The notes under the pieces were generated by a model. The model was not told the origin of the DNA. It made no database searches and saw only the letters and a list, made by a program, of their open reading frames with translations. A stretch of DNA of 62,941 nt, filler included, from Basidioascus undulatus (lineage: Eukaryota), in assembly GCA_000826855.1 (NCBI GenBank). It is 4 parts of 4 records of this genome, joined end to end, with 100 filler letters (N's around TTAATTAATTAA, not from the genome) between each part and the next. Parts side by side here need not be neighbours in the genome. Positions count along the whole stretch, not along the records: positions 31,588 to 47,213 come from JTLS01000631.1; 3 more parts are not named here. One strand, 5' to 3'. Shown piece after piece: positions 15,708 to 51,700 of this stretch; position 1 is the first letter of the stretch; each line of letters opens with the position of its first letter. Made by a program: the position numbers and the translations under genes.

Positions 15708-15807
15708 NNNNNNNNNNNNNNNNNNNNNNNNNNNNNNNNNNNNNNNNNNNNTTAATTAATTAANNNNNNNNNNNNNNNNNNNNNNNNNNNNNNNNNNNNN
15801 NNNNNNN
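15708..15807. other. Artificial contig-joining spacer
   Basis: 44 N + TTAATTAATTAA (stops in all six frames) + 44 N; identical to the other two spacers. Confidence 0.97.
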
Positions 15808-23342: not shown

Positions 23343-25610
23343 GGTTCTGCGGACCAATAGAATGTCAGCTTCCAGAGGGATCTGATAAGTGGCTCGAACG
23401 CACGCAGAATACGATGGTGTACTGTCGGGTTGCCATCAGCGGGTCGCGTGGACGGAGACATGGAAGTTGCATCAAATCAGGCGTACGCTAGTCTCGTCAA
23501 GAAACCTCTTGAGATCAGTATGTGGTTCTGGGTTGGCGGTAGTGGATAGCTGAGATTGGCAAAGGGAACGTGTCAGAGGTGAAAGGGGATGCCAAACGGT
23601 GCCTGGATGCTCCGCCAACGACCCGTGCCAGGCAGAGTCTCTTTGTGCTTGGTATAAGCACCCAACATAGCTTTTTCTTTGTGCCAAATCCCTCCAAGCC
23701 AGGACCAAGATTACACGAGACCAGGTGAGCCTGCGCATCGACTATCGCTGCGTCCGACCAGCTCGGTGGACGGCCAGCGGACTCGAACGAGTCTCACAGT
23801 GTGCCGCATACGGTCCTTATACGATCCCCATACCGCCCGTTCCCAACCCTTTCGCAAAAGAACACCGCCGATGCTCACCTCGTTCAGTCTCCCGCGGCCT
23901 TCCGCGCCCAGAGGTCCGTCCAAGCGTAGCGACTCCTACGCCCCGCCACACCGCACCACCGCCCGTCCGCGTCCTCCGGTCAACCCACACGGCAAATCCT
24001 GCGACAGGATCATCGTGGCGTACGAGTTTGTGAACGAACCCGTGCAGATCGTTGAGATTGAGCTTCCTACGCGGCGACGGTCGTGGGAATCAGAGTCCTC
24101 AAGTTCCCACCCTCGGCGGCGAAGATAGCCAGGGCGTTCCCATTTCGGTTTGGCATGAATTCATGTGTCGGACTTGTAGCCACCGGTCGCTGTGCCTTTC
24201 AACTGTAAGTCCTAGCAAATGTGCCACAGACGTTTGCTACAGTTATCCGATATATTCTATGAGCGCTTTTGTGGAGGTCTGCAACCTCCACCCACTTGAA
24301 AACGCAAAAACGGTGGAACCCAAGGCGGCCACACAGCGCGCGTAGGCAATCGTCGCTGTCCACCCATGGACCCGTCCTTGTGCGGTACTGGGTTCAAAGA
24401 ATAAGACATACAAAAGTATTTGGAAATCAATTCCATGCTCGTAGAGCCCGACGACACGGTAGAACTTCTGATCACTCGGTTCACTTGAGACGGATGACCC
24501 CGCGATGAATCTCACTCGGGCACTCGTGAACTCCTTGTCTTTGTCCATGGATATCTAGCTTGTGCAAATTGTTTTTAAAGATGAATCTTATCCTTTTGAC
24601 CCCAGTAACCAGTCTGTTGAGCTATGTCGAGCGAGAAAAGTGCGTGAACTGCACAATTTCCTTTCCGGGTGAACAACTTCCGCTAGCTATTTGTCAGATC
24701 GGACGGCCAGGGTGGATTACGAGAGGGTAAATCCCTGATGTATTAGACTGACCTGTATGATCAGACCAGTATTTCTCTGGGCAGTGGACAATGTTCCAGT
24801 CCGTGCGTGAGGCGGTCGCACCCAGGCCTCTCGCTGATGTCCCGCTGACCGAAACCCCCAGACTATGTTTCGGGGTGGGGTCCAAGCAATATAATTTCCC
24901 TTCTTACATCTGTACGGGCATCCAACGAGCTGCGCGGGCGTTCCTGCGAAAGGCAGGCTGCTTCTGTTGCAACGCTTCGTGTTGCAACGTCGCCGCGCCA
25001 GAGCATTCGTGAACTCGGAATTCCACAACGCAAAGACTACCAACCCTCTCCCATTTCAACCCTATCTTTTTCCTGGTAGTGGAATCATATGTTTTGGACA
25101 CGGCTTGGACGCCTTTCAGGCGATGAGCTTCTGAAGCCAGGCATCTCGCCCGCGACCGCTGTTCTCTCGCACAAATCTCAGCACTGACCACTTTCAAGCC
25201 CGCTGACATAGCCCCTCCCGCCTCTCCACCTAGCACATTATAATTCACCCAAACCAACCCGTTGCTTGACATCGGCTGCTGCGCAACCGGGCTCTTTTGC
25301 TTCGGCGAGTGGATCCCTGGCGCTAGGCCTCATCACGCCTCCTCACGTGAGGGCCCGGCGCCACCGTTCCTGCTCGTGCGGTCGAGGATCGAAGAGCACA
25401 TGAATTTCTGGGCCCTTTCCACTTTACCGGTAAGTACGTTGCCTATATTTTGCCTCCTTCTTCCACGCGTGTGGGGACAGCTGGCACCGGACGTCCGGCA
25501 GCCGGTATGGCCAGGCCCACTACCGCAGTGCAGCAAGCTCAATAAAAGGCAGTTGCTCGCTCAGAGTTGTCGTTCTTCTCCCTCTCACCATATCCCGTTC
25601 ATTCGTCGCC

Positions 25611-28863: not shown

Positions 28864-30002
28864 TCAGTGCAGCCAGTGCTTGAAAAAGGCACTACCCGTC
28901 TGCGCAGCGTCGATCTGTGCCAGAGCTGCGTAGCCGCCGAGGTCGGAGCCCCTACATCAAAAATGACACAGATGAGTATCTCTTCAAGCTGCACCGAGAA
29001 GATTCTCCTCGACGGGGCTCTGCTTACCGGGTTGTGAAGCCGTGTTCGGTGTTCAGGAATAGTGCCAGCTGGGACCAGACTGTCTCGTTCTTGGCGAGCA
29101 GCGCACCCTCTGCCGCACGCCTCTGTTCCGTAGGGAAATAAACATCATCTGGATAGAAGTAGAGTGGGGGGCCAGACACCCGACATAGTCAGTGTCGTAT
29201 GCGCTGAGGAAGGAACTGGCGGAAAAGACCCACATCCGGCAGTAAGCAGCAGCACCGGCTTGGTGAGCGCCTCATAGTCCCTCGTCTCCGTGATGGAAGG
29301 GTGAGCGACGGCCTCCGCGTCCGCCTTCGTCTCGTTCGCGCCCGATCCCAACCACAACGTCCCCGGCGCCCCCCAGCAAATACCCATCGAGCCCACTTTC
29401 CAGTACTTGCCCCGCAAGTCATTCACCACCGCCGCGATCTTTGTCCGGGCCACGTCCCCCCGCGGCGGGTACTTCTCCAGAAATGGGGCGGCGTCCCAAA
29501 CTGCGAACTCGTCGAACGCGTAGGGTGCATGCTCGCCGGAAAAGAAATCGGGAATGAAGACGTCTGCGTCAGCGTGGTGGGCGTAGAAATGCGCGAGGAG
29601 CCGGGTAGAGGGCAGGGCCCAGCCGAATACGTCGGTAATGAAAATGAGGGCCGGGCTGTTAGTGGAGGATGGGGAAGGCGCAAAGTAGGCGGGAAGGCCG
29701 CCGAGTGTGATTTCCTGGCCGCTGCGCACAGCGAAAGGTGGAAGGAGGGGCGTTGGAAGTGCGTGAATTGCGATGAAATATGCGTGGGAAGATGAAGTGC
29801 CCTACTCATGGGAGTTGGTATCGGGCAAGTCTGAAATCAAGTATCAAGATGACGGATTCCAGTTGTGAAGGCATTGGCACGCACGCCGAGGAACAAAATC
29901 ATCCGCCGTTCGCGGCGCAGAGGGCAGCGCCTCCGCGACGACGGCGACCGTTGCTAGACCGGCAAACGCAAGGAACGCAGAATAGGGCTTGGTCAGAATC
30001 AT
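28864..30002 (-). CDS. Dienelactone hydrolase family alpha/beta hydrolase with predicted signal peptide
   Basis: Five exons splice in frame: MILTKPYSAFLAFAGLATVAVVAEALPS.../HLPDTNSHD/GQEITLGG...TDVFG...PDFF...GICWG...AHPS...TAG/YDVYFP...EHGFTTR/G...FFKHWLH*. The GxCxG nucleophile, Asp and HGF His of the triad are present. Confidence 0.85.
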
Positions 30003-31487: not shown

Positions 31488-31587
31488 NNNNNNNNNNNNN
31501 NNNNNNNNNNNNNNNNNNNNNNNNNNNNNNNTTAATTAATTAANNNNNNNNNNNNNNNNNNNNNNNNNNNNNNNNNNNNNNNNNNNN
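31488..31587. other. Artificial contig-joining spacer
   Basis: 44N-TTAATTAATTAA-44N. Confidence 0.97.
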
Positions 31588-32562
31588 AGAAAAATGGAAA
31601 GGGAGGGTGGGGGAGACGAACCAGTAGAAGAGCATGGAGGTCGCGCCGGAAGTAACCATCGGCGACTCGGAGACGGAGAAGACAGAGTAGAAGCCGACCT
31701 GCGTTCCACCCCCGCATCAGCCAGCCACTTTTACATCGCAGTCCACCCCAGTCCATCAATGAACATACGCACGCCGAACGCTGTACTCCCCTACCTACAG
31801 GTCAATCTCCAAGGTACTTCAGGGAAGGCGGACGAGGGCGAGGCGGAACGCACCCCCAATCTGCTCAGGATCCGGGTTCCCCTCCGCGATCTTCTTCAAT
31901 CTCGCCCAGTCCTGCTCGCGAAAGGGCATGCCACTGTCCTCCCGTCCCCCATCAGCTTCCTCCCTCCCTCCCCATCCCTCATCCGCTCTCAAAACGCACT
32001 TGTTCTTCACGCTCCACCTCGCGATCTGCCTCCCCCCGGCACGGTCAGTCTCGCCCGCCTGGGGGATGAGGCACCCAAGCGGCGCACCACATGCTTCTTC
32101 AAATCTGGGAGCTTTGCGGATGGGGGTGTGGGGTCGGAGGGATCGCGCTCGAGATATGAAGCAGACTCGAAGTGCACGGAGGCTGACGTCGCGCCCGCGT
32201 CGTCGGCGTTCTGGAGGATTTCGCGGAGGACGGTCCACTCTCCTGAATCTGTTGCGCACCCCACCTCAGCTGCACTGTGCGTACTCTATCGCGGATGGGA
32301 GGAACGTACAGCGCGCGAGCTGATAGGGGCCAGTGGGGGTCAGTCTGCGGAAGAACGGGAGGGGGGAGCAAGCATGGGTTGGGCAGACGGACGATCTTGT
32401 CTATCAGCGCACGCTGGTTGACCTCTACGCTCTCGTCCGCGCCTTGCTCAAGCTACTCTCCCCCCACCGCCCCCCGCCCACACACACATCCCACCCAGTC
32501 AGTCCACGCCGTCGCACTCCGTCCGGATCCCAACGCACCAGCGCTTTCCGAGCGGCGTCCAT
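31588..32562 (-). CDS. Sacsin/HSP90-like GHKL (HATPase) domain protein, 5' part only (likely fungal DUF3684 family)
   Basis: Spliced VEVNQRALIDKI/LAR/YSGEWTVLREILQNADDAGA (N box), KNN/GMPFREQDWARLKKIAEGNPD and FGV/GFYSVFS (G2 box). Truncated at the spacer. Confidence 0.85.
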
Positions 32563-32874
32563 GTCGGATCGAGCGCGCGGGGAGGAGTCTAAACGATTAT
32601 CGAAGGGAGTGTAGGATAGAATCTAGGTGTGTGGGAATGTGGTGGTGGATGTGGAAGACAAGACAAGAAAAGACACGGTGATGAGGCCGTGCAAGAGGTT
32701 GAGGGCCCGTCGCACAGCCAGAGGTCGGATCGCGGAGGCGGTCGAGATGCCGCAACACCCGCGGACGTAACGCAAAGCCAGCGTGGGAAAACGCACTTCG
32801 ACTTCCGACGCGACGGATCCAACGCGTCCTTTCAGTCGCGTCCCCTCCCCTCCCACACCATCCATTATCCCCAA
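32563..32874. promoter_or_regulatory. Probable bidirectional promoter (HATPase gene / SUB1)
   Basis: Head-to-head ATGs 312 bp apart. Confidence 0.5.
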
Positions 32875-33591
32875 ATGGCCAAGTCCACCACTTCCAAGCC
32901 CGCCCGTCGCGTCGCGCACGACTTTGACTCCTCCGTCCCCCCCGCGGGCTCAGCGAGCGAGAGCGAGGCGGAGGCGGTCAGCTCGGGCGTTGAGAGCAGC
33001 GCGGGGGAGGCTGTGAAGGGGAAGGGGAAGAAGCGGAAGGCTTCTGCGGGGAAGGTGGATGGGAAGAAAGAGGGGAAGAAGGCTAAGAAGGCTGAGGAGG
33101 CTGAGGAGCAAGGACAGGGGGAGGGACCGCAGGCGTTGAGGAATGAGGACGGGGATGGTGCGTCTCTCCTCTCTCATCCACCACTCTCCGGCATTCTCAT
33201 ATCCTTCCTATAGCATATTTCGAGGTCCGCGTTAAAGAGACAGTGTGTATGTGGATGCGATGCTGATCCGTGAACCGCAGCTCGGCCCCCACCGCCGCCT
33301 GACCATCCGCAAGTTCAACGGCAAGCCGCTCATCGACATCCGCGAGTACTACGCGGACAAGAAGGACGGCGGGAAGGAAAAGCCGGGGAAGAAGGGCATT
33401 GCGCTGGGGAGGGAACAGGTGCGTAGCTCAGGTCTTCCGCGTACCGTCTTCCCCTGCCGTCTTCTCGTCTTGCTGTGTTCGCTGGGTGAGGTTGGGGGAC
33501 AAAGACTGATTTGCATGCTGGTGGGGTGGGGAAGTGGGAGGAGGTGAAGAGGGTGCTAGGGGGGGTGGATAGGGAGTTGGGGAAACTTTGA
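32875..33591 (+). CDS. SUB1: Transcriptional coactivator PC4/Sub1
   Basis: Ser/Lys-rich N-terminus, then AYFE/LGPHRRLTIRKFNGKPLIDIREYY...KPGKKGIALGREQ/WEEVK (PC4 domain). TGA at 33589-33591. Confidence 0.92.
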
Positions 33592-34171
33592 TGCGGTGGA
33601 CGCGTCTGGTGGAAGGGCGGGGCACGGTGCGACGGTGCTTGCTTCCTCAGCTCACGTTCAAACGACGCATTTATGTTTCCATGTGACCGAGGTTTAATTG
33701 TAAGGTATTGCAAACCGCTGGGCCGAGCGCATTGATAATTCCAATTCCATCGAAGCGAGCGACAGTTCCGAGTCTGGATAGCGTGCGTTCGTGGGATAAG
33801 CTCGCCGTGCGTGTTTCTCCCTCCTTGTTCTTCGAATGAACCTCTGTCAATGTGAAAGATCGGTGATCTCCATTGCGTATCGACGTATCACTGTCCCGGC
33901 ATCCCTTCTGTAAATTGGCGCTCCCCCCTCCCAACCCGCACGTGACCCTTCGTTGAACGACCGCCCACCCGCACGCCAGAGCGTCTTTGCTTTCTCGCCA
34001 CGACCTTGCCTGCCTGCCGCTCGAGGCATACCAGCTTGTCTCTCCCATTCTTCTCCCATCCACACCCAGACCCGTCCATCTATTCCCTCCTAATTCCTCC
34101 CGTACGTATCCTCCCCCTGCCCCACGCGCTCCTTGCTAAGTTACCGGGATGATTTACAGACAGAGCACGCG

Positions 34172-37100
34172 ATGTCCGACCCCCTCACCGCCCTATCCAC
34201 CTACCTCTCCCAGTCCCTACAGCCGGCCACCCGGCGCGCGGCCGAGCAGGCGCTTGCGCAGGCGGAGACGCAGCCGGGGTTCCTCCTCCTCGTCCTCCAG
34301 CTCGTCGGCGCGGGGCAGGCCCCCCCCGAGGTTCGCCTCGGTGCGGGCGTGCTGTTTAAGAACGCTGTTAAGCGGGGGTGGGCGCCGGTACGCCTTCCTT
34401 TCTTCCTCCCCTGCTCCTCGTCTTCTTTGAATTAGTTAGGTGCGTTTGGTGATGAAGGACGAAGAGCTGATGATGGCTGGAAACCGGATGTGGGGAGCAG
34501 GAAGATGCCGAATCCAACTTCACCGCCGCCGACCGCGCAGCCGTCAAAGCGCAGATCGTCCCCGCGATGATCGCCCTCTCCTCCCGCCCGCCGCTGCAGC
34601 TCCAGATCGGGGAAGCCGTGTCGCTCATTGCGGAGCATGACTTCCCTCAGCAGTGGGAGGGGCTGATCGACGTGCGTCTTACCCCCCACCTCCTTCTTCC
34701 CCCTCTCCCTCCTCCCCTCTTCCCTTCACACTCATCTCCCTGCGTCTCGGTTTGAGCAAGTGGAGAAAGGTACTCATGCTGATGTGGGGTTTGGCGGGCG
34801 AAACAGCAAATCGTCTCCTCCCTCTCCGAGACGGACTACAGCATCAACAACGGCGTGCTCACGACCGCGCACAGCATCTTCCGCCGTTGGCGCGCCCAGT
34901 TCAAAAGTGACGCGCTCTACTCCGAGATAAACTATGTCCTTTCCCGGTTCTGCGAGCCTTACTTGGCGCTGTTCCAGGTCCGTCTTCCTCCCTATGCCTC
35001 CGTCCTTACCCTTTGCCTCTTTCTTTCCCACCTCTTTCTTCCACTTTTGTCCTCCCCCCAGGCTCCTTTGCCTTCCCCCTCTCCCTATTTCCATCCCCTC
35101 CCAGCCCCCTTCCTCTCCCATCCCTCCATCTTGCTTCCTTTGCCAAGACATACATGCTTACCCTCACCCTGGGGCGGCACAGCGCACCGATGCCCTCCTT
35201 TCCTCCCCCACCTACCCGACGCTGCCCGCGCAGCAGCGCGATCAGCTCGCGCACTCGATGGTGCTCCTCCTCCAGCTCTTCTACGACCTAAACGCGCAGG
35301 ACCTCCCGCCCTTCTTTGAGGACAACACCGAGGTCTTCATGGGCTTCCTCGCCAAGTACCTCGTCGACTGGGGGAACAACGTGGACTGGGGCGCGGTGTG
35401 TTGCTGCCTTCTCTTCTTTCCTTCTTGCCCCATCATAGCCTTTCTTGCCCTCTCTCTTCAGTGGAGGACGCTTCTGCGCAGGACTCTGGCTGACTCGCTC
35501 GCTACGCTCGCACAGAACGAGGACGATGCCGACCCCACCCCGCTCGAGAAGATCCGCGCGTCGATCTGCGAGTCGGTCGAGCTCTACGCGCAGCGCTACC
35601 TGGACGCGTTCCCACAGCTGGGCGCGTTCGTCGAACGTGTCTGGACGCTCCTCACGCACTTGGGCCCAGGCCAGCGCTTCGACCTCCTCGTTGCCAAGGC
35701 GATGCGCTTCCTGTCCTCCGTCGTGCGCAACCCCGGCCAGCGCGCGCTGTTCGAGAACGAACAGACTCTGGAACAGTTCTGCGAGAAGATCGTGCTGCCT
35801 AATATGGCGCTGAGGAGTGAGTGGACGTTCTTGGTGGGGTGGGAAGGGAGGAAGGGGATGGAAGGCTGATTGAGCTGGGGTGCGTGGATAGCGCACGAGG
35901 AGGAGATGTTTGAGGACGACCCGCTCGAGTATGTCCGGCGGGATCTGGAGCCGACTACGGGTGCGTGCTTCACTCGCTTCGCCATGCAACGAGAAGGTGT
36001 TTATTCGGCTTCATTTCCGCAGAGAGCGACACGCGCCGCTCGGCCGCGACCGAGTTTACGCGGGCGCTGATGGAGCAGTTTGAGGCGTCTGTGACGGGCA
36101 TCATCCAGCGGTACATTACCTTGTACTTGCAGGTGCATCGAAACCCCGCCGTCTCGTGTTGCTAGGCTCGGGGCTAATCTGGGATGACGGTACACAGCAA
36201 TACAATGCGGACCCAGCGAACAACTGGAAGTCCAAGAACACCGCCATCTACCTTCTCACCTCTATCGCTTCCCGCGGCGCGACGACGCAGGTGCGTGTCC
36301 CCTCCTCACAATGCGAAGTATTCTCCGGCTGACAGTGCGCCTCCAGCACGGCGTGACCTCCACGAACGTCCTCGTCGACGTGATCTCCTTCTTCTCCACG
36401 AACGTCTTCTCGGACCTGCAAGCCGCGTTGGGGACGGTGCACCCCATCCTCGAGGTGGACGCGATCAAGTTCCTGCACACGTTCCGGAACCAGCTCTCTA
36501 AGGACCAGATCCTCAGCGTCCTGCCTCTCCTCGTCCGCCACCTCGCGAGCGACAACTACGTCGTCTACTCGTACGCGGCCATCACGATCGAGCGCGTGCT
36601 GTTCATCCGCCAGAACGGGCAGCCTCTGTGCGTCCCCTCCCCTCATCCATCTTCCCCCGCAGCGACAAGCGGCTGATGGGTGTATCCTCGCAGGTTCACC
36701 TCCGCCGACGTGCGCCCGTTCGCGCAAGACATCCTCCTCGCGATCTTCGCCAAGATCTCGTCCGCGCCGACGCCGGAGAAGAAGGCGGAGAACGATTACC
36801 TGGCACGGGCGGCGATGCGCGTGATTCTGACGTCCAAGGGCGCGCTCGCGCCAGTGTACCTCCCCGTGCTCGAGCAGCTCTCGGCGATCGTCGCAGAGAT
36901 CAGCAAGAACCCGTCCAACCCGCGCTTCTCGCAGTACCTCTTCGAGAGCATCTCCGCCCTCGTCAAGTACGTCGTCGCCGACGACCCTGCGAGCTTGCCC
37001 CAGTTCGAGCAGAAGCTCTTGTATGGGCCGTTCCAGACCATCCTAGCGGAGGACATTACGGGTGGGTCTCTCTCCTCCCTGGCCTCTCTTCCTCCGCAAC

Positions 37101-38362
37101 AACTCCTGAACTAACCTGCCCCGCCCCCAGAGTTCACCCCCTACGTCTTCCAAATCGTCGCGCAGCTGCTCGAGCTGCACTCGTCGGCGTCTCTGCCGGA
37201 CTCGTACCAGGCGCTCCTCCCGCCGCTCCTGACCCCAACGCTCTGGGAGCAGCGCGGCAACGTGCCCGCGCTCGTGCGCCTCCTCCGCGCGTTCCTCGTC
37301 CGCGCCTCGCCCGCGATCGTCGCCAACAACCAGCTCCCCGCCGTCCTCGGCGTGTTCCAGAAGCTCGTCGCCAGCCGCTTGTTGGACATCTGGGGCTTCG
37401 AGCTGCTGCAGGCGCTGTTTGAAAACGTCCCTGTGTAAGTGGTCCTTCGTTTTCCATTGGCTGTGTGTGTGGATGCGAAGCTGACTCGGGCGCTTGCGAT
37501 GGAACAGCTCTGCCTTCGACCAGTACACGACCCCCGTCCTCACGCTCCTCCTCACGCGCCTGCAGGGCTCCAAGACGGACCAGTTCACGCGCGCGTTCAT
37601 CTACTTTGTCTTCTTCGTCATGGCCGTCCAGCGCGAAGGCCTGAGCGCAGACTACATCGTCGGGGCGTTCGAGAAAATCCAGCCTGGGTGCGTATTGCTT
37701 CTATCTACCCCGCTGACTTGATTTTCTCGCTGACGGGGAAGGAATGAACGATCCGACAGCCTTTTCTCCCAGCTCCTCACTGGCGTCATCCTCCGCGAGA
37801 TCCAGAAGGTCCCGCAGAAGGACCGCAAGGTCGTCAGCGTGGGCCTCATCCGCCTCCTTGCGAGCAACAGCCTCCAGTCCGAGCCGCTCGTCAAGGCCTG
37901 GTGTGTCGTTCATCACTCACCTTCTCGCTCGTCCTTCACGTCAACTGACACCGCCGCCCCACAGGCCCGCAACCCTCGAGGCGCTCCTCCGCGTGCTCCT
38001 CCTCCCCCAGGACCTCAAGGCCGCGGGCAAGGGCGACGACGACCTGTACGTGGACGAGGACACGGGCTACCAGGCTTCGTTCTCCAAGCTGGCCTCGTCC
38101 GAGGTCGCGCGCCAGGACCCCGTCGCGGACGTCGCCGACCCGCGCGCGCTCCTCAGCGCCGAGCTCGCGCGCATCAGCGTGCAGAAGCCTGGAATGGTGC
38201 GCTTCCCCTTCCCTCTCCCCAGCCTTTCGTATGGGTAGTTGATGTTGAAGGTCTGCGTTGCGTATGGATCAACAGCTCCCGCCCCTCATCAGCCAGGTCC
38301 CGCAAGAGCTCACGCAGCCGTTCTTGAGCTACATGCAGACCAACTCGCACACGATCGCATAA
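34172..38362 (+). CDS. CSE1: Importin-alpha export receptor Cse1/CAS (exportin-2)
   Basis: IBN_N start (RRAAEQAL...GVLFKNAVKRGW), IAEHDFPQQWEGL, FYDLNAQDLPPFFEDN, EEMFEDDPLEYVRRDLE, NWKSKNTAIYL, KNPSNPRFSQYLFES and WEQRGNVPALVRLL. TAA at 38360-38362. Confidence 0.95.
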
Positions 38363-39160
38363 ACGACCTCACCTTTTCCCTGCATCGCCCTTCTACTCCT
38401 TATTCCCTATCCTGACCCCCCTAGCTAGCCTTTCCTTTTCATTTCTCCCTCCACCTGCATGACGAACCCCGCACACAAAAACACGCTTTGCTATTGCCCT
38501 GCATTGTCATTGGCATTGTTTTCCCATCATGCCCACCCGTCTAGGTAGATAATCACTCGCCTCACGTCGTCCGTCCTCGATGAAAGCCGCATCGCGCGCG
38601 GACATGAATTGCGCCTGCTGAGCGGCTCAACAGCGCTGGACTGGGCGCTGGACTGCCTCGCTTGCTGCCGACATAGATGTATCTCCCACTGCACAGAGAA
38701 TCTGGAAAGGTCACGCGGCAAGTGACGTTGCTCCAATGCAATACTGATATCTGCAAGCGGAGCGGACCGCACGTCCGGCGGTTCAAGCCACGAGCCGGCT
38801 CACGACAAATTTTCCACGTTCTGCTCTCCTCGCTCTTTCTCTTTCTGAAGTAGTCTCGACTCGACTCAGCAGACTTTCTGCAAGCTGTTCCAGCTAGCAA
38901 AAGGTCCAGAGACTGATCCAAGTGAAGCTGATGGAAATGATGAGCCTCGATGCGCTGCCTTCAACCGCACGGACCTTCCGCCCTAGACCGAAGCTTGGTC
39001 ACCCTCGTTTTGTCTTCCTTCGCCATCGTCCGCCTTGGACCAAGTGGCCGTACTTCTTTCGAGTTCTGATCCGCTGCTTTTCTCTCTCAACCTAACGGTT
39101 ATTGCATTCGAACTTCGTTTTCTCGTCCCCCTGTCCTTTTCGATCGTTGACCTTGCGCTC

Positions 39161-42100
39161 ATGGCGGCTCCATTTTTCGGCCAATCCGCGCTCACTCATC
39201 CACCTACGCCCCCCGATACGATTACTCGTCCATCTGCACCGGTTCAATCATGGCCGGTCACTCCCGAGCCATCACCCCCAATGCGGCAGCAGTGGGCGGT
39301 AGTCGTTCTCCCGCCCGCGACGCTCCCGCACGTGGCGCCGAGCTCATCGAGCTGGGGCCCGCATGAGCGGTGGGGGGCTGGGGTGTTGATGAAGCTGGAA
39401 GATACGGTTGAGTCTTTCTCCTGTCTCTGGAAACCGATGTAATTGTTGCTTACTGGCGAGACTTCACATCGACGCTTCAGCTCGAAGCCCAGCTGGACGC
39501 GATCGCAGTCGAATTCGCGCTGCCCGGCAAGACCGGCGTGCATCTCTATCTCGTTCTCCCCCCGAACCCTGCATCCTCCCACCTCGGCACAACTTCGACG
39601 TCCCGCCCGCGTATCACATCCTCTGCTTTCCCGTTCCTCTTCGGGCCGTTTCTGCGACCTACCTCCACCGCCCCTGCTCTCCAACTAGCAGTCGCAGCGA
39701 CGCTCGAATGGGTCGTTGACGTTCCTCACGCACCGTGGTGGCCCGCTTGGATTGCAGGCGGCATCCCGGACGGGATCCTCGACGGTGACGAGTCGCGCCG
39801 GCAGAGCACGGTCGACCTCTCCCCTCCTACCCCGCCGCTCCGGCAGACGCTCCTCCGCAACAACGTCGGCCTCAACAGCGAGACTCTTCAGAGCCCGCTT
39901 CCGAGCGTTGCGTTCCTGCGCAAGCTTTCACTTCTCGCAGGGCGCAACGTCTCACCCGCTTCCTCCGTCCGCGCGCGCAGTCGGACGCAGACCGGCGCGA
40001 CGATCGCGTATGTTCGCGATGGGCTCCCGCCACCGGAGAGCTCCGCGGCGGCCAGAGCGGCCGTCCTCGGGCCACCCGCTGTGATTCCGGGCGCTGAGCT
40101 GAGCCTGAGCGAGAGGGAAGAGAGAGTGCTCAGATGGGAGAGGGAGGTCGCAGCCGCGGAGACGGAGACGGAGGATGTTGGGGTGGAGGATATAGGGGAC
40201 GACGCGGTTGAGGTGAAATTGCCGCACAAGGAGGAAGTGGGCGAAGAGGAGAAAATGAGCGGGGAGAACGTCGAGGCCGATTCGGTACTCGATTCGGCGG
40301 CTGGTGAGGATGACCACGTTTACGACATCTTGTTGAGTCTGCTGTTCATTCCAGGCAAAAACCAACGTCTTATGACTGATATTCTTCTGAACATCTTCGG
40401 TAGAGCATACGGATCGAATTCATCTGCCCCAAACGCCGAGCAGCTGTTCGCTTCTCGCTCTCAGCTTTCGCGGTCCGCGCCTCGAAGTCCTCCGCCGGCT
40501 TCCGAAGACCCGATAGAGCCAGTGGATATGGACGGACTTGACGCTCAAAGCGACGGTGCTCCAGTACTGTGAGTATCGCTTTCGACATCCACTGCCGATG
40601 AAGATTGCAACCCTGACGCCGCTTTGACACAGGTCCTCCCGTTCCCGTTCGCTATCTCCTCCCCCTTCGCCGACTCCGCTTCCGTCGAGCCCGAAGCAAG
40701 ATCTCGATGCAAAGGGCCTTGAACTCGACATATCGTCTGTTTCTTTCGCCTTTCCAGCGCCTATCGATTGTCAACGTTGCTGACAATTTCACGTTGTGCG
40801 CCTGCAGGTCCAACGCTCTCGATACCCCGCTGGCCGGCACTCCTCTCCACCACCAACGCCACCATTCTCTCCCACGAAGTCTCGCGTCCGAGCCCTTTGC
40901 GTCGAACAGCGAACACCAGGAGCACGACAAATTTTCCAGCGACAACTTCGAGGAGTATGTCTCAAACCCATGCACCTACATCAGACTGTAACCACTGAGG
41001 AGGCGCTCCAATTCAATTGACTGCTTTTCCGCTCACCCAGACCCGACACCCCGCCCACCGCCGACTTCTACGCGGCGTCCCACACCTCAGGCGAGTCGAC
41101 TCCCACCTCAACAGCGCAACACAGCCCAGCGACCGCCCCGCCGCCGAAGGCGCAGTCGCCGGACCGGCACAACGATTTTGAAAACGAGTGGGTTACATTT
41201 TCGCGCCCGTCTTTCTCTAGGCTGAGCTTGGATGCACCATCGTTGCTTACCCGGCCGCTGCTTCCAGCGCATACGACCTCGACACGATACTGCCGGATAC
41301 GCCCCAGGCCTACGTGCCGCCACCCGGTCTACCTTTCCCCGATCACTTCGCATCTCTGCAAGGCTACAGTGCCCCCGAGGTGGGTGCGGTGGAGGGCGAA
41401 GCGGCCTTGCAAGAGTTACATTCCAATTCGTGCGTGAGCATTTGCCATTAAAATCGTCAAACGTGGCTGACCGAAGACGCCCTTTAGGTCCTACAGTCCG
41501 GAGGCCTCGCACTCCAGCTACTTGCTGTCCCGAGCTTCAAGCTCTCTGGACCTCGGTGCTGAGCATTACGGAGGGAAGCTGGCGGAGCGAGGATGGGAGG
41601 GCAACTGGCCGTACTATGTCCCTCGGTGCGGTGCTTGCTCTATTGCCGGTTGACTCCATAGCGTTTCACAGCTGACGCTAGAGGACTATATAATCAGAAC
41701 CCCGGAAGGCCGGACCTTTGACGATCTTCCCTCGATCAAGAGCACGACCGACGAGCCGGTGCCAACGGTTGCCCATCTCCGAATCGGCGAGATGCCCGTG
41801 GACGGACTGGTCTACCCAGTCTTCGATATCTGTGAGACCCTTTATCTGTCTACGACCGCTCGAGGGGCTAAATTTCGGGGATGCCATTCAGATCCCGTTG
41901 CCGAATCGGTGGGGAAGAACGGCGAGCAGAGCCGGTCTCACAGCATCGTTCGGTGCGTATTTGCTCCTTCGTCAAAGACGAGCACTCTTAACTTCTTAGT
42001 CTGATTGCCGTTTATCTTCTGTCGTGGCCGCAGGTTCGCCGTCCTTCCGGAAGATTCGTCCTCGAGGGCGGAGTCGCCAGTCCTGGAGAACGCAAGAGCA

Positions 42101-45100
42101 CCACGGGAACGAGCTGGGGCTGACGCGAACGACAACGACTTTGAAACAGAGTCAGTTCCGTTTCCCACACACCTACCTCCAAGCTGAGCTCGAATGCGGC
42201 ATCACCGCTGACGCAGCCGTTGCTTTCAGCACGTACGACCTCGACTCGACTACGCCGGGCATGTCCGAAGCCCACGCGTCGCCGCCCGGCCTACCCTTGT
42301 CCGATCACGTCGTATTTAGGCACGCTCACCGTGCGAGTGAGGAGGGCGATCCTATCAGCGAACATGACTTGGATGAGTCACGCTCGAACTCGTACGCCAG
42401 CCTTTCACGACGTTGCAACGCCGTACCCGTGACTCAACGGAGACGACTTACAGGTCCTACGATAGCGAGGATTCTGGATTCAACTACCCGCCCTCCCACA
42501 TTTCGGAGTCGCTGGAGACCGTTCGCGAGCACGGCGGAGGGAGCGGCCCGCAGCGAGGATGGGAAGGCCACTGGCCGTATTATGCCTCACGGTACTGTGG
42601 CTATTTTCTGACTTTGAAACGAGAGAAGTACATGGCTGACGCGAGAGTGAACATAAACACAGGACTTCGGAGCGTTTGACCTCGGCAAATTTCCCTTCGA
42701 CGGAGTACACGGTCGACGAGAAGGCGGTTGCGCATCCAGACGTGGGCGAGACGCCTATGCAGGGACTGGTCTACCCGTTCTCCGTCATTTGTGGGTTCTC
42801 GTTTCCTTGGAACACGATTTCTCAAGTAGCTCAATTTTGCACGCCCCTCAGATCCTCTGGTCCATTCAGAAGGCGAGAAAGGCGAGCAGAGCCGCTCCGA
42901 CAACTTCGGGCGGTATGCAATTGACTTTCATTCGTACCGACAAGCTTACCGATCTGACTTTTCTTAATTGCCTTCCTTCTTGTGTCACGGTTGTAGGTCC
43001 TCCAGCTCTCTGGAAGATCCGTCGCTGAGGGCCCCGTCGTCAGTCTCGGACCACGGCAGAACATCGCCGGAACCAGCTCAGGTTGAAGACAACCACTTCG
43101 AAATTGGGTCAGTCCCGCTTTTGCACATATCCCTTTCGATGGGAGGGTATCGACGCTGACGCAGGCGTTGCTTCCAGCGCCTACGGCCTGGACCCGACAC
43201 CGCCAGCTGCGCTCCCAGCCCGCTCACCGTCGGCCGACCTAGCGCTTGATTATTCTGCGCGGGCGCCTCGAGTCGCAGCGAGCGAGGAGGGCGAGGATGT
43301 TGACGATGAAATGGAGTCGCACTCTGATTCGTACGTCAGCCTTCTCGTCGCTGAAATACATGCAAGAAGTGGCTGATCGGGGACCGCATTTTTCAGGTCC
43401 TATGGTACCAAGCCTGCCAGCTTCAATTACTCGCCTTCACAAGCTTCGGGTCCTCCGGAGTCCGTTGTTGAGCATGGCGAAGGCAGCACGCCGCAACGGG
43501 GATGGGAGCGCAACTGGTCGTACTATGTTCCAAGGTGCTGTAACTGTTGCTTCGAACAACGCATTAAGGGAGGTGAATGGCTCATACGGCTGGACATATC
43601 ATCAGGACTTGGGAGCATCCTACCTCGGAGGATCTCCCTTCGACGGAGAGCGCGGTGGACGACCAGGACACGCCGGTTGCGCACGAGAAGCCGGAGGAGG
43701 GACCGGTCTACCCCATGTTCGCCAACTGTATGTTTTCGTCCCTTGAAGATGATCGAACCAATAACCCAATTCCGCGCCTGCCTTTCATCTCCAGACGCTG
43801 AATCAGACGGCGAGAAAAGCGAGCAGAGGCGGGCACACAGCGTCGTTCGGTGCGCGCTTGCACCGTTCTCATACAAAAGAGCACCGCGGTCTGATTCGTT
43901 TGATTTTACTTCCTGCTTTTACATGGCGCTAGATCCGCCAGCTCTCCGGATCCGTCGATGAGGGCGCAGTCAACGGCATCGCCAGAGCCCGCTCAGGCTC
44001 ACGCGAAGGACAACGGCTTTGAAATTGAGTTAGTCCCATCATACCCATCTGCCTCTCATACTTGAGCCTGAATGTGGCAACGATAGCTGACGCCGCTGCT
44101 GCTTTCAGCACACACGGCGTCGACGCGACGCCGCCTGGGACGCCCCAAGAGAGCGCACCGCAGCCCTACTTGTCCTTGTCCGATGACTCGGAACCAATTC
44201 ACGACCCAAGTTGGAGCGAGCACGGCGATGAGATGGCCGACGAGGTTGGCGGTGAAATGCACATGGATGTGTCACGCTCCGACTCGTACGCCATCTCGCA
44301 ACGCTGAAACCCACGCGAAACTTGACTGACTGGAAACGCCTCCCAGGTCCTACGGTACTGAAGACTCTCGCTCAAGCACCCGAACTTCAGACTCTCCGGA
44401 GTCCGTCGCTGAGCGTGGCGAAGTGAACGTGGCGGAGCAGGGATGGGAGGGCAACGGGGCGTACTTTGCCGCACGGTGCGCGGCAGTTTTCTTGACTCTA
44501 AAGCGGGAGGGGTCCATGACTGATTTGAGGCTAAACTTTTTCGCAGGACCTCGGAGTTTCTTCGTCTGGAGGATCTCGCTCCTGTGGAGAACGTGGTCGA
44601 CGAGTCGATGACAGCGGTTACGTATCGCAACGTGGGCGAGACGCCCGTGGAGGGAATTGTCTATCCGTTTTCCATGATCTGTGGGTTCCCTTCCTTTTCT
44701 GGACAATCTATCCAGTGACTGAATATCGCCACTGCCCTTCAGATCCCCTCTCTGAGCCACCCGTGCGGTACGCGCTGGACTTTACACAACAGGACAGGCT
44801 CCCCAATTTTACTAGTCTGATTACGCTACGTGTCCCCAGGACTGCCAGCCTCCCGGAAAAGCCGGCGGTGGAACCGGAGGCGGAGCTCGAACAAAAACAG
44901 GGCTGGAATGGCAGCTGGCCACGCTCCGTCCCTTCGTACGCCGAGTGTTTGCGCTAAATACCAGGCAAAGACACCTGTTGCTGACTGCGTTCACGCAGTT
45001 CTCCGCTATCGGACTCTCTACAAGTGATCGAGGACCTCGCGGAAGAGCCCGGAATCGAGCTCGAGCAGCAACAGGCGTGGAAGGGAAGCTGGCCATACTA

Positions 45101-46035
45101 CGTCCCCCGGTAGGCTAGCTAGTGCTTCTGATATTCAAGAGTTCAACTGACGACTGGCAGCGACGCGAGATACTCTACCTATAGCTTGAGCGTTGCCGTC
45201 AGCGACGAGTCCCATGTGCCTGGCGAGGAAAAGGAAAAAGGCTTCGCAGAGGAGGGCGACCGCGAGGGCAGCCGGCCGAACTACGCCCCCCAGTGCGCTG
45301 TCGAATTTCTGGCTGTATTTGTATGGCAGGGTGCTCACGGATTGTGCTCACACTCAGGTCTTCGGAGGACATCAGCACCGAGTCGGACCCCCCGGAGGAA
45401 CAACCAGCGGCGGTTCAGCAGTCGCACGGCGGGGCAATGCGCAGCGGGCACGAGACGCCTGTGACGCAACTGGGATACCCGCACTTGATTATTTGTAAGT
45501 CTTTATTTCTCCTTCATTTCAAACGTGATTGCAATTGACTTCTTGATCTCCGGCAGATCCGATGCGCGCCAAGACCCCCGTCGTTCGCCCCGCACCGTCT
45601 TCTCTCAAGCCTTGCGCTCGCGACCATCCGCTCAATTCGCTGGACATCGGTGAGCGAGCTCTCTGGTGCCCGCCTTCTGTGGCGATTTATTGACAAGCTG
45701 ATGCTGAGAGGCACACGCCCCATAGACCTGAGCATTCAGTATGCTTCTCTCGAACTTCCGACCAAAAGCGCAACGCACGCAGAACCATTCCGGGATGAGA
45801 AGGAGGAGCGCGAGCGGCAGACTGCAAGGGGTGTGAGGCTGGAAACAACGCTCCCGGCTTTGGAGATCTGTAAGGTGCTTTCCGGACTTCACTTCATGAT
45901 CGCAGCTGAATCAGACTCGACTGTTGAACAGCCGGATATCCACACTTCGAGATCTACCCGCCGCGCGTCGATGCACCTCTCGGGACGGTCATCGCTGCGC
46001 AGCCGTCGGAAGTGGTGCAAGCGGCGGAGCCCTGA
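39161..46035 (+). CDS. Uncharacterised protein of about 32 exons and about 1,550 aa: small folded N-terminal domain plus acidic Pro/Ser-rich region with repeated WxGxWPYY and YPxxxIYP motifs
   Basis: Exon 1 39161-39406 (MAAPFFG...GVLMKLEDT); exon 2 from 39481 (LEAQLDAIAVEFALPGKTGVHLYLV...RPRI...ATLEWVVDVPHAPWW). Downstream GT-AG exons have matching phases at every junction checked. Last exon 45932-46035 (SGYPHFEIYPPR...AAEP*). Confidence 0.75.
41041..44767 (+). repeat. Four diverged tandem copies of a five-exon/five-intron module of about 0.95 kb
   Basis: Module starts at 41041, 42034, 42997 and 43933. Homologous exons have conserved sizes (C: 138/138/138/129; D: 134/128/122/134; E: 61/61/55/25; B: 162/162/153/177) and homologous intron ends (e.g. 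tgcttccag/tgctttcag before every B exon). Confidence 0.9.
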
Positions 46036-47213
46036 TAGACATACATAACATGGATCTGTAGGAAACTGAGAATCATGCTGTATGCATATATTCACAGACG
46101 CGTCTACCTACATGATTTTTGCTTTGCGCATTCAAGAGAGTCTTCCGGAAGCCGTGCACTGCGAAAATCCTCATCGGCAGGTCGTGTGGCTGCTTGTACT
46201 TACACTTCGGTTACAGGAAAGGCTGTGGTATACTTAAGTTAGTTACTTATGGAAGAGCCGTGACTTTAACATTGTGAGTTTAAGTGACAAGGCAATACTG
46301 GACTAAGGAAAGACGGCCGGTTCAGTAAAACTGACTGGCTGATGTCCTTCGGGGGACTGTACGATGTGTTGAACTGACCCTCAAGCGGCAGAGTAGAGGT
46401 GTCTCCAAGGCTTGTTTTTGAGGTACGCCTTTCAGGCAAACGTTTGTAGTGTTTCGATGTTTGAGGAACCCGGCGACTTTCGGTATGCACTGCAAACAGA
46501 ACAGTCCTCGGCCCCAACTTTTGGTGACATTCCGAGCAGCTGGAGTAAGGTTGAATTCTTCGAAATTTCTCTTGAATATGTGAAGCGGAGAGGTATGGGC
46601 AAGATGCCCATGCTATAGCGGGGAGCACGACAAAGCACAACCCAGCGCTGCCGGAAACGTCGAGGCACACTGAGCGTGCATGCAGACAGTCGCAAAAAAA
46701 AAGGTCTATCAGAATGTTCCATATCCAGCTTCTAAGCGGATTAAAAGGCCGAGCGTTGTCGGTTCTGGTGTGAGTACTCCCTGAAGTCCTTGCAGCTCCT
46801 GGGTTACGGGAATAGTTGGCGCAGAACAGGCATTGTCTGCTTCTCACGGATTAGACTGGCTCTAAATTCCTTGGAGCTCACGTCTTCCCACCGTGCGACG
46901 ACAACTCAAGCTCTTCAAAGCACTGAACGTGGGACGGTGGTATCGGCGCAGAGCTCCGGTGTTCGCATTCTATTTACTCGCTATGAAAAAAGAGACGCTA
47001 TGAAAACAAAAGAGAAAGATTGTCCGAATGCTAATACGGGTTAGTTTTCTATGCACTGCCATTTCGGCATTTTGACGCGATGCACCTCTGTAGGTCCCGT
47101 GCTCAACAGCGGTCCGTCAAAACTCTTTCGCCACGACGCACGACCCTGTTCCCAGTATACTCATAGTTCCACTCTTGATCATCTGGTCTTGCCCGTATGA
47201 ACCGCCTACCGGC

Positions 47214-47313
47214 NNNNNNNNNNNNNNNNNNNNNNNNNNNNNNNNNNNNNNNNNNNNTTAATTAATTAANNNNNNNNNNNNNNNNNNNNNNNNNNNNNNN
47301 NNNNNNNNNNNNN
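47214..47313. other. Artificial contig-joining spacer
   Basis: 44N-TTAATTAATTAA-44N. Confidence 0.97.
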
Positions 47314-48742: not shown

Positions 48743-51700
48743 ATGGCATTCTCACCGCCAACAAATTCCAGAGCATCGTTCTCAGCGGCAGCAGCCCGGG
48801 CTACGTCCCCTCCCGGTCGTCGAGCGAGCGAGACCGCGAGCCTCAACACGTCCGTGTCCTCGCCGCCCTCCCGGAGCCCGATCCCGTTCGCGAGCAGCAC
48901 CAACAACCGCACACCGCCCGCGAAGGAGCCAGGCAGCGCGGGAAGGCTCAAGGATCTTACCGGCGGAGTGGTCAAGAGTCGGAAGGGGTCCGTGTTGACT
49001 CGAGGAGCGATCTTGAAGTCCGAGTGAGTGCCTGAGCTCCTTCAGTTGTTGAGAATCATGAACGCTTAGAACGCCCGGATCACAGCCACTACGCGTCCGG
49101 TCGTGCGCGCTCGCTGGACATCAACCTCCAAGGCGCACCCAACTTCCGCCAGCCTCGCTCCGTCACCCTCGGCGTTTACGGCGTCGCCCAGCCGACCACG
49201 ATCGGCCTGCGCACCATTCTCGCCCTCCTCGACTGCCAGCCTGGGCGCGAGGAAGATGAGTCAGGCGAGTGCGTGTGGATCTCGACGCGCGATGAGCCCC
49301 TCGTCTACATCTCTGGGCGGTCATACGTCCTTCGCCACGCCGCGAGTCCGAAGAAGAGCGTCGCGCTCAGCGACCGTGCGGCGAGCCTGGAGGGCATCGA
49401 GGAGAGGATGAAGGCGGACATATTGAAGGAGGCGAGAAAGTGAGTGGCAGCGTGACTAGGAGCTTAGTGATCCTGCTGACAGTAGCGGGTGAGCAACAGG
49501 TACGGAGGGCTCATGTTGACCCACGAAGAGATGGCCGATGGCGAGATCGTCCCAACTTGGCTCTCTGTGGACGCCCAGAGCGTGCTTACTCCGCGCGAGG
49601 TGTGGGAGGTGGCGAAAGCGGAAGGCTTCAAGGTCGAGGTGCGCTTTCTTGCCGCTACATTTCCAAGCGCGCTCTGAACCGACGCTTTCAACAGTATCAC
49701 CGGTACGTTGAGCCTCAACCAACTGCTAAGTTGAGACAAAATGGCAAGGCTGAGTAGGGTGTGTTATGGAACAGCATCCCCATTTCTCGTGAGACGCCTA
49801 TCGAGGACAACTATCTCGATGCGTACGTCAAGGTGATGAAGACGCTCGACCCCGTCCGAACTTCGCTCGTCTTTTCCTGTGGCATGGGGGTCGTTCGCAG
49901 TACGCCCTGTTACATTATGTACTTTATCTTGGATTGAACGCTCACAGACACTTCATCCGGCCTTCAGCCACCTTCGCCATGGTTTCTGGCCTCCTCATCA
50001 GGCGCAAGCAGCTCCTGCTTATGGGCGAGCCTGACCCGTTCGACTTTGCGCCCCCACCTACACCGCAGGGCAACAGCACCGTGGGTTTGCGTAGGCCTCA
50101 CCCTCGTAGCAGACCTCAGCTGATGTATCCGTTCTCGCCAGCTCGCAGCGAGCGTGATGGAGCAAGCCAACGCGCAGCAGCAGACGAACAAGTCGCTTCT
50201 TCGACTCACCCATCTGGTCGAGAAAGGTGCGTAGGCGATCGTGCGCCTGGACGGACCGACAACTGACAGCTAACCGCGATGGACTTGTTCGCAGTCCTTT
50301 CCAGCGAAAACCAACAATCCGCTATAGAAATTCTCATTTCTCACCAAACTCTCCTCGAGAATCTCCGTGCCGCCTCGCTGGGCCAGTACCACATCGTAAG
50401 CTCCTCTTTGAGCTTTTCCAGCCATCTGGAATCCCGTAGCTAACTCTCATCGTTCGCTCAGGTCCTCAACCTCCTCGCGTGCCTCGAGAACGGCCCCGAG
50501 TGCAAGCGCCTCGTCGACACGCTCATCGACAACTGTTCGCAAATCGTCAACCTCCGGGAAGCCGTACTCGACCACCGCTTGCGCTCGAGCACGACGCGCG
50601 TCGACGAGGACACGCGGCAGAGCCACCTCCGCGAGGCGCTCAAGGCGCTCGAGCGCTATGCGTTCGCTGTGGCGTTCGCAGGCTACCTGGACGAGAGCGC
50701 AGATCTGGAGGTCACGTTCGCGGAGTTCTTGCAGCAGCGGACGGAAATTCGAAAGTGCGTCTTGTGCAAGCGGCTGGTCGAGGAGAGGGGCTGGGCGCGA
50801 CACGAGCGAACATGACTGATGACGGGGTTGGATTTCTCGACGGACAGCATGATCGAGTTCCTCCGGCGCAAGGGCAGCAGGCTATTCAACTTCGCGCCCA
50901 TCTCGGACCTCTCTGTCATTTCCAAGCGCGCGGGAGGCGCTTCGAAACCTGCGACGGACGTGTCGCTCGCCGGAGGCCAGGTGTATGCGGATGAATATGC
51001 CGAGCTGGTTGTTCATGTTCGTCATTTCCCGAAGTCGTGCTCCAACCAATCTGAGGCTTGCTGACGTTCATTCGACACAGAATCGGAACGGCATTCTGCT
51101 GCGCTCCAGCACGCTGTCAGTATTTGTCGAGAGAGTAACGTTCTGCGACGTTGTCGAATCACTGACCGAGATCGATCTATGAAAGGCTCAAGAGCGACAT
51201 CTGGCGGAGATCTGACGTCAATACGACGCTTGCGGGCGCTGTCAACTTCCGTCGGGTGCCGCACACCAACATTTACGCGCTCGGTCAGCCGGATGTTGGC
51301 GCGATCGATCAGGTATGTTTCTCGTGCTGCCCGTTGAGCCATTCCGACGAGCGAGAGTTCTGAACCAATTCTCGCAGGTCATCTCCATTATCCGCGAGCA
51401 ACATCCCGATGTGCACAAGAAGATCACTTGGATTAATCTTCGGGAAGGTACGCCATTCTACTGCTCATGTGGTATTCGTTTTGGGAGTTAACGTGTGCAT
51501 TGGTTCAGAGCCGAGTTCGTCTTCACAGAGTATGCATGTTGGGCGAGCTGGCTGCTAACGCATCGCTTCAGTCGTATACGTCAACCAAGAGCCGTACTGT
51601 CTGCGTAAGGAAGGGTATTCCCTGCGCAACCTGAAGGTTCGCCAGGGATACACATGCTCCTGCGTTAGGACAACAAGGCTTACACTCCAGATGGGCAGGA

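Follow-up and report, generated by a model that had tools for sequence, protein, structure and literature searches.

How does a gene come to hold the same five exons four times over, introns included, and what would the protein made from such an array do? These questions are raised by a locus of Basidioascus undulatus (assembly GCA_000826855.1), the whole of which lies in the contig JTLS01000631.1, at positions 31588-47213 of the 62,941-nucleotide (nt) stretch of joined contigs analyzed here (hereafter the window). The original prediction had placed four copies of a cassette of exons A to E at 41041..44767 and had read them as a functional gene under selection, enlarged by duplication of intron-containing DNA. 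We found that the cassettes form the middle of a predicted gene of 30 exons at 39161-46048 on the plus strand. That this gene exists and arose in this way is, taken together, highly probable, and the overall reading that we favor, a cassette-duplicated gene for a multivalent disordered protein, is a likely one.

Four copies of a five-exon cassette share one reading frame

The four A-B-C-D-E copies were recovered at exactly the coordinates first given for them, and all 20 exons have AG before and GT after them. Their lengths in cassettes 1 to 4 are 147/117/111/96 nt for A, 162/162/153/177 for B, 138/138/138/129 for C, 134/128/122/134 for D, and 61/61/55/25 for E. Joined together (2388 nt), the exons gave one frame with no stop in 795 codons. 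Stops numbered 25 and 7 in the remaining forward frames and 33, 11, and 18 in the reverse ones. When the joined exons were shuffled 2000 times by mononucleotide, no shuffle was free of stops (mean 23.3, minimum 11). In the unspliced cassette DNA each frame contained 23-34 stops and the longest open run was 203 codons, which bears out the claim that a plain open reading frame (ORF) track would miss the gene. The translated modules of 214, 202, 193, and 187 amino acids (aa) carry the motifs quoted for them and agree with the proposed size of about 190-215 aa.

The cassette was copied as DNA together with its introns

In the central 3.7 kb, a unit of about 905-993 base pairs (bp), with five exons and five introns, stands four times head to tail. 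A self-comparison of the locus, which had been suggested as a check, recovered offsets of one, two, and three units: self-blastn aligned 41169-43801 with 42132-44755 (63.3% identity over 2735 columns, 800 bits, offset about 963 nt), and identities over all offsets were 61-63% over 763-2735 columns. Separate repeat finding gave four-copy families at a spacing of 931-966 nt, several of which span exon/intron borders. Tandem Repeats Finder, which is limited to periods of up to 500 nt and is thereby blind to a unit of about 950 nt, gave no repeat in 41-45 kb.

The introns are shared as well as the exons. Mean identity between cassettes was 64% in exons and 59% in introns, and the intron phases are 2,2,2,2,1 in all four cassettes. 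Since the unit begins and ends in phase-2 introns, the frame is kept at any copy number. The normalized global alignment score averaged +0.098 for introns at homologous positions (30 pairs) versus -0.193 for those at non-homologous positions (120 pairs), with a Mann-Whitney p of 7e-16 over pairs that are not independent. The intron positions, phases, and residual intron sequence common to the copies indicate that, as the original prediction had held, the unit was copied as DNA and not from spliced RNA.

Class profiles detected four A, four B, seven C, and five D exons, as well as three E exons and one shortened E. The three extra C-type exons and the extra D-type exon result from further, older or partial duplications downstream, and the phase-1 D/E intron is also present at the fifth D-type copy. 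No further copy of the unit was found elsewhere in the 62.9-kb window on either strand with exon-class and unit profiles, and no Pfam family matched the exon pieces searched; a match to a known transposon or satellite had been named among the findings that would overturn the proposal, and the repeat is confined to the locus within the window. Exon 4, which ends like the A exons, was considered as a fifth A-type exon and rejected, its match to the A profile not being significant (E 6.3).

Jukes-Cantor distances between cassettes were 0.475-0.610, and synonymous distances (dS) 0.6-1.1. At about 0.5-0.6 substitutions per site for the unit as a whole, the copies are old, and they are about equidistant. 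Their tree has the shape of a star (internal branches about 0.025 long, bootstrap values 45-46) and yields no order for the duplications. Unequal crossing-over or replication slippage, with the breaks falling in introns, would most likely have produced the duplications. The locus is an example of a known process, the in-frame internal duplication of a multi-exon cassette.

Exon lengths, but not intron lengths, change in steps of three

The size differences between homologous exons had been described as multiples of 3, and we found this in all 30 pairs within classes, 24 of which are unequal in length; at least 10 independent changes are required, giving a naive P of about 2e-5. Intron length differences were divisible by 3 in 10 of 30 pairs (6 of the 26 unequal ones), which is the chance rate. 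This contrast between exon and intron indels is the strongest signal of selection and is internal to the gene. The ratio of nonsynonymous to synonymous substitution (dN/dS), calculated by the Nei-Gojobori method, was 0.42-0.75 between cassettes and 0.37-0.67 per exon class, and the bootstrap 95% interval lay below 1 in four of the six pairs. Purifying selection on the cassettes is weak. A dN/dS near 1 together with frame-breaking indels would have spoken against the proposed functional gene; the exons contain no frame-breaking indel, and the kept frame and the dN/dS values support a functional gene under selection in silico.

The predicted gene extends beyond the cassettes on both sides

Starting from the 20 cassette exons, we extended the frame in both directions, which gave the 30-exon model of Table 1. 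The extent first proposed is therefore exact for the cassette exons and too short for the gene, which runs from 39161 to 46048 with partial repeats up to 45649. Exon 1 and the large exon 2 are followed by two short Ser/Pro-rich exons and the four cassettes; after cassette 4 come C5, C6, C7, D5, an exon in the E position, and a last exon with a basic tail. The result is predicted to be a real, intron-rich, fungal-type protein-coding gene with no stop in its 1625 codons.

All 29 introns are 51-86 nt long with GT..AG borders. The donors have G at +5 in 26 cases, the acceptors are CAG (25), TAG (3), or GAG (1), and a CTRAY branch-like motif occurs in 18 introns. All introns are in phase 2 except the D/E intron, which is in phase 1 (exon 1 is entered in Table 1 as ending in phase 0). 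Retention of 27 of the 29 introns would break the frame. The introns at 41832-41891 (60 nt) and 44768-44839 (72 nt) have lengths divisible by three and no in-frame stop, so their retention would add 20 or 24 residues with the frame intact. GC content was 0.62 in exons versus 0.51 in introns. ORFs on the minus strand over the cassettes are short and gave no match to the repeat profiles.

The model is least certain at its 5' end. Its first intron (donor GTTGAG at 39407, CAG acceptor ending at 39480, 74 nt) was picked among the options that leave the frame open to 40568 for a length within 51-86 nt, and is a choice rather than a unique solution. At the 3' end, acceptors ending at 45710, 45725, or 45782 lead to the same final frame, and the start of the last exon is ambiguous.

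Exon E4 equals E1/E2 minus 36 nt, an in-frame loss that removes the GEQSRS island, and the intron after it aligns with the other E introns from its first bases on. The end of C6 is 75% identical to that of C5 over 68 nt, extending into the intron. The exon at 45557..45649 shares with E the intron position given in Table 1; it is otherwise unlike E, and the E profile gave no match to it.

Table 1. Exons of the predicted cassette gene, with positions counted along the window.
Exon	Position	Strand	Evidence and remarks
Exon 1	39161..39406	+	starts at ATG, 82 codons, ends in phase 0
Exon 2, large, N-terminal	39481..40568	+	open frame, 362 full codons
Exon 3, Ser/Pro-rich, ends ...LELDI	40633..40734	+	GT-AG borders, in frame
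Exon 4, 147 nt, ends ...DNFE like A exons	40808..40954	+	in frame
Cassette 1, A	41041..41187	+	AG/GT flanks, A profile
Cassette 1, B	41268..41429	+	AG/GT flanks, B profile
Cassette 1, C, ends …RGWEGNWPYYVP	41488..41625	+	AG/GT flanks, C profile
Cassette 1, D, ends …GLVYPVFDI	41698..41831	+	AG/GT flanks, D profile
Cassette 1, E, ends …GEQSRSHSIV	41892..41952	+	AG/GT flanks, E profile
Cassette 2, A	42034..42150	+	AG/GT flanks, A profile
Cassette 2, B	42230..42391	+	AG/GT flanks, B profile
Cassette 2, C	42454..42591	+	AG/GT flanks, C profile
Cassette 2, D	42663..42790	+	AG/GT flanks, D profile
Cassette 2, E	42852..42912	+	AG/GT flanks, E profile
Cassette 3, A	42997..43107	+	AG/GT flanks, A profile
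Cassette 3, B	43178..43330	+	AG/GT flanks, B profile
Cassette 3, C	43397..43534	+	AG/GT flanks, C profile
Cassette 3, D	43606..43727	+	AG/GT flanks, D profile
Cassette 3, E	43795..43849	+	AG/GT flanks, E profile
Cassette 4, A	43933..44028	+	AG/GT flanks, A profile
Cassette 4, B	44109..44285	+	AG/GT flanks, B profile
Cassette 4, C, degenerate motif GWEGNGAYFAA	44347..44475	+	AG/GT flanks, C profile
Cassette 4, D	44547..44680	+	AG/GT flanks, D profile
Cassette 4, E, shortened	44743..44767	+	AG/GT flanks
C5, extra C-type, ends …QGWNGSWPRSVP	44840..44935	+	C profile 44.9 bits; weak DNA match by nhmmer, E 2.7
C6, extra C-type, ends …QAWKGSWPYYVP	44999..45109	+	C profile; DNA profile E 3e-5
C7, extra C-type, degenerate, ends …REGSRPNYAP	45161..45292	+	C profile
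D5, fifth D-type, ends …LGYPHLII	45358..45494	+	E 1e-10 jointly with the end of C7; fifth copy of the D repeat family
Exon at E position after D5	45557..45649	+	phase-1 intron inside the Tyr codon of I-Y-P, common to E
Last exon, basic tail	45711..46048	+	TAA stop at 46046-46048

The predicted protein would present repeated short islands between variable spacers

The 1625-aa protein is rich in serine (12.8%), proline (10.9%), glutamate (9.2%), and alanine (9.1%). Its modules are acidic, with an isoelectric point (pI) of 4.1-4.6 each, and the last exon is basic (pI 10). The charge-hydropathy margin is negative, on the disordered side, in every module, and the maximum 19-aa Kyte-Doolittle hydropathy of 1.45 argues that the protein has no membrane segment. 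The modules are 36-46% identical in protein sequence; over the 222 columns of their alignment, 34 are invariant and 50 are conserved in three of the four, and these positions cluster in islands, five or six per module. The island [DN]xFE..Y[DG][LV]D spans the A/B junction and S[ND]SSY the B/C junction; RGWEGNWPYY stands at the end of C, E.P..G.VYP...IYP spans the D/E junction, and GEK.EQ[SR]R lies within E. In the D exons the Tyr-Pro islands read VYPVFDI, VYPFSVI, VYPFSMI, and GYPHLII.

From these features we infer an acidic, Ser/Pro/Glu/Ala-rich, largely disordered, multivalent protein, in which each module of about 200 aa would present the same ordered short islands between variable, acidic spacers of low complexity. 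If calpastatin is taken as the analogue, one partner molecule would be bound per module through several weak contacts, and four to five modules would provide avidity or recruit several partner molecules. We regard this putative mechanism as plausible, at somewhat below even chances. As leads only, the YPx3[IL] island may be read by a Bro1/ALIX-type protein, and the Ser-rich and RxxS islands may hold kinase sites. A more far-reaching reading, and a rather doubtful one, makes the gene the founder of a fungal family, restricted to its lineage and so far undescribed, of multivalent disordered regulators that resemble calpastatin; if it were true, each cassette would on its own supply a "wrap-around" unit that binds or inhibits one molecule of a conserved partner, such as an enzyme or a Bro1-type protein of the endosomal sorting complex required for transport (ESCRT), and valency would be tuned by gain and loss of whole cassettes.

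Proteins with a GW/WG "Ago-hook" contain many such dipeptides in a disordered region; five GW (one each in C1-C5) and two WG occur in the 1625 aa. A two-chain complex prediction of exon C with exon D scored 0.00, which counts neither way. AlphaFold2 run on the single sequence of exon 2 gave a mean predicted local distance difference test (pLDDT) score of 40.8 and a predicted template modeling (pTM) score of 0.18; a model at this pLDDT is too poor for a fold search.

Searches for relatives

The queries in all homology and fold searches were single exons or exon 2. No Pfam family matched any of 17 exon pieces (6 searched at E up to 1 and 11 at E up to 10). Exon 2 had no match in a collection of 5.8 billion protein clusters (longer and near lengths); the evidence is weak, as scoring was confined to the 8000 candidates with the most words in common. 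A profile of the seven C-type exons had no match at E up to 0.001 among 1.84 billion protein representatives; its members score 45-83 bits each, and a well-kept exon would be detectable only if it had been called as protein. The ESM Atlas contained no match to exon 2 or exon C1, and a sequence search of the PDB none to exon 2. Among JGI metagenome contigs, 344 pattern matches to the C-exon alignment and 382 to exon 2 were obtained, none of which was confirmed. The Rfam search detected no family in the window.

The last exon matched the designed propeller Tako8 (E 5e-12), and this was rejected as an artifact: a match of about 6 bits is summed over seven identical blades with an independent E value of about 100 each. 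The last exon is similar to one WD40-type blade strand over its residues 61-96, at 45893-46000.

As a control, the CSL-type ORF of the window was searched against the protein collection and found 23 proteins, mostly fungal NCBI entries with a few animal or unnamed ones, the best at 31% identity; the window's own CSL protein was absent. The organism is thus poorly sampled and apparently unannotated there, and the empty searches fall short of establishing orphan status. The genome seems simply to be unannotated in the libraries searched.

Comparison with known systems

According to an excerpt of PMC3632108, calpastatin has four inhibitory domains with three conserved subdomains each, is fully disordered, and has exons that match its domains. 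The cassette protein resembles it in having a dissimilar N-terminal region followed by four tandem homologous modules with short conserved subdomains and variable spacers, and in that a module is encoded by several exons and was built by internal duplication of frame-neutral exons (as the excerpt of PMC3632108 has it). There is no sequence relationship between the two, and the 17 exon pieces, scanned singly, match no Pfam family, the calpain-inhibitor family included. Calpastatin exons are of class 1-1, whereas the cassette gene has phase-2 borders, and calpastatin is an animal inhibitor, unlike this fungal-type gene; inhibition by the cassette protein would be pure analogy.

More generally, genes for disordered proteins are described in the same excerpt as often built by internal tandem duplication of symmetric exons, the repeated short motifs giving avidity (PMC3632108). 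The present locus shares with such cases its successive homologous exons of the same phase and its motif-bearing, probably disordered segments (excerpts of PMC3632108 and PMC9013439). It differs in that the cases in these excerpts are human, with no fungal case met there and none specifically sought. Furthermore, the cassette unit comprises five exons, of which D and E are individually asymmetric; the block, or D and E together, is frame-neutral.

Multi-exon repeats are known from the two-exon kringle-IV unit of apolipoprotein(a) and the super-repeats of nebulin, and their copy number often varies within populations. As in those genes, several exons with their introns were copied head to tail and the intron positions were kept, but kringle-IV and nebulin repeats encode folded or defined structural repeats, and the cassette module belongs to no known family. 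In yeast cell-wall genes, which encode secreted proteins, the intragenic repeats are short, almost identical to one another, and confined to single exons. The likeness is that of a fungal protein enlarged by in-frame internal tandem repeats, while the unit here is about 950 bp with five introns, its copies are about 63% identical, and the protein has no hydrophobic or membrane segment.

The looser motif YPx3[LI] is the form found in ALIX-binding viral late domains. According to an excerpt of PMC3244986, PalA and ALIX recognize YPXL/I. Like clients of PalA and ALIX, such as PacC with its two YPXL/I motifs, the cassette protein has a conserved Tyr-Pro island once per module; it differs in that the other islands apart from D5 reach at most the looser form, and any binding would be putative. 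Chance may produce a Tyr-Pro motif this short, and the copies have it in common simply through homology.

Alternative explanations

Several observations weigh against the reading that we favor. The gene, its splicing, and its expression are predictions from genomic DNA, the first intron and the last acceptor of the model are uncertain, and disorder is judged from composition only. The dN/dS values are moderately below 1, with intervals that reach 1.01 for cassettes 2 and 4 and 1.07 for cassettes 1 and 4. The GC content at third codon positions (GC3) is 0.69-0.70 versus 0.86-0.93 in the conserved Cse1 and CSL genes of the window, a difference compatible with weak selection on codons, with low expression, or with a gene that is young and evolves fast. 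No homologue was found per exon in Pfam, the PDB, the protein library, the Atlas, or the metagenomes, so that conservation across species is lacking as an argument. The strict PalA/ALIX form YPX[LI] occurs once (YPHL in D5), with YPx3I in D1, D2, and D4 and neither form in D3. The absence of homologues, the low GC3, and a dN/dS that in two pairs is not far below 1 are also what a decaying or never-expressed pseudogene would show, or a repeat that is a transposon, a satellite, or an assembly artifact. We consider any of these extremely improbable: the whole model is free of stops over 30 exons, as no shuffle of the cassette exons was; exon indels are all in frame and intron indels are not; and splice signals are kept at all 29 introns. 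A transposon or satellite is further opposed by the lack of another copy in the window or on its other strand, and a transposon by the lack of any Pfam match to the 17 exon pieces, among which no transposon domain was seen; there is no Rfam match either. Copies that are only about 63% identical are not expected from collapse or expansion in assembly, and two DNA sequencing runs, both possibly the source of the window, contain all sampled words of the stretch.

Two other explanations accept the gene and assign the module or the array a different role. The module of about 200 aa may be a folded domain of a new family in a structural repeat protein, with the conserved aromatic residues W, W, Y, Y, F, and Y as its core. 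The aromatic content of 6.4-8.9% per module is fairly high for a disordered region, and conserved positions, many of them aromatic or Gly/Pro, occur across the whole module. We consider this unlikely, as the charge-hydropathy margin points the other way in all modules, S, P, E, D, T, G, Q, K, or R make up 60-66% of the module residues, the islands are separated by spacers of varying length and sequence, every exon class having in-frame indels, and no Pfam or PDB sequence match was found; these arguments are indirect, and none tests the fold directly. The cassettes may instead be mainly an alternative-splicing array that uses the genomic repeat to diversify isoforms. Each exon length in classes A, B, and C and every D+E sum is divisible by 3 and all cassette borders are in phase 2, from which it is argued that the frame-neutral A, B, and C exons, D+E pairs, and whole cassettes could give transcripts differing in the number or choice of modules; tandem exon duplications are also linked to alternative and mutually exclusive splicing in excerpts of PMC9013439 and PMC3632108. 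The copies differ in length and have diverged in protein sequence to the 36-46% identity given above, unlike typical sets of mutually exclusive exons, and we think that such an array is very unlikely to be the main purpose of the repeat. It is compatible with a cassette-duplicated gene for a multivalent disordered protein and does not exclude it.

Significance and genomic surroundings

The duplication mechanism is a textbook one and has no bearing on a long-standing open question. The locus is an unusually clean fungal-type example of gene growth by copying a block of exons with its introns, and its exon lengths, which shift by threes against intron lengths at chance, provide an internal control for frame selection that needs no second species. 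The protein may represent a new family of multivalent disordered proteins, in a fungal lineage that is poorly sampled. Should module number vary among relatives, the locus would offer a direct test of how the number of clustered motifs is adjusted. Annotation easily misses or mis-models genes of this kind, which have many short exons and lack homologues.

The DNA of the window is nuclear and of fungal type, with short GT..AG introns that often have CTGAC-like branch motifs. Three identical linkers (44 N, TTAATTAATTAA, 44 N) stand at 15708-15807, 31488-31587, and 47214-47313. Their 12-mer stops all six frames, and since they join contigs, adjacency across them is meaningless.

The cassette gene is bounded by the CSE1 exportin gene on one side and by the contig end on the other. 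On its strand and upstream of it, 33236-38330 (plus strand) holds a PC4 coactivator gene and then the intron-rich CSE1/CAS exportin gene (Pfam PC4, Cse1, and CAS_CSE1). A frame of 685 codons at 21381-23435 (minus strand) encodes the CSL-type transcription factor (LAG1 DNA-binding/beta-trefoil) used as control above. Its best matches are fungal (Ceratobasidium, Mortierellaceae, Phenoliferia, and Tulasnella) at 25-31% identity, and at identities this low the organism has no close sampled relative for the CSL gene. An ORF of the dienelactone hydrolase family (Pfam DLH) lies at 29148-29801 (minus strand), and in the next contig an exon of a protein tyrosine phosphatase (PTP)-like phytase (Pfam PTPlike_phytase) lies at 49036-49440 (plus strand). 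The PC4, Cse1/CAS_CSE1, DLH, and PTP-like phytase neighbors are ordinary nuclear genes.

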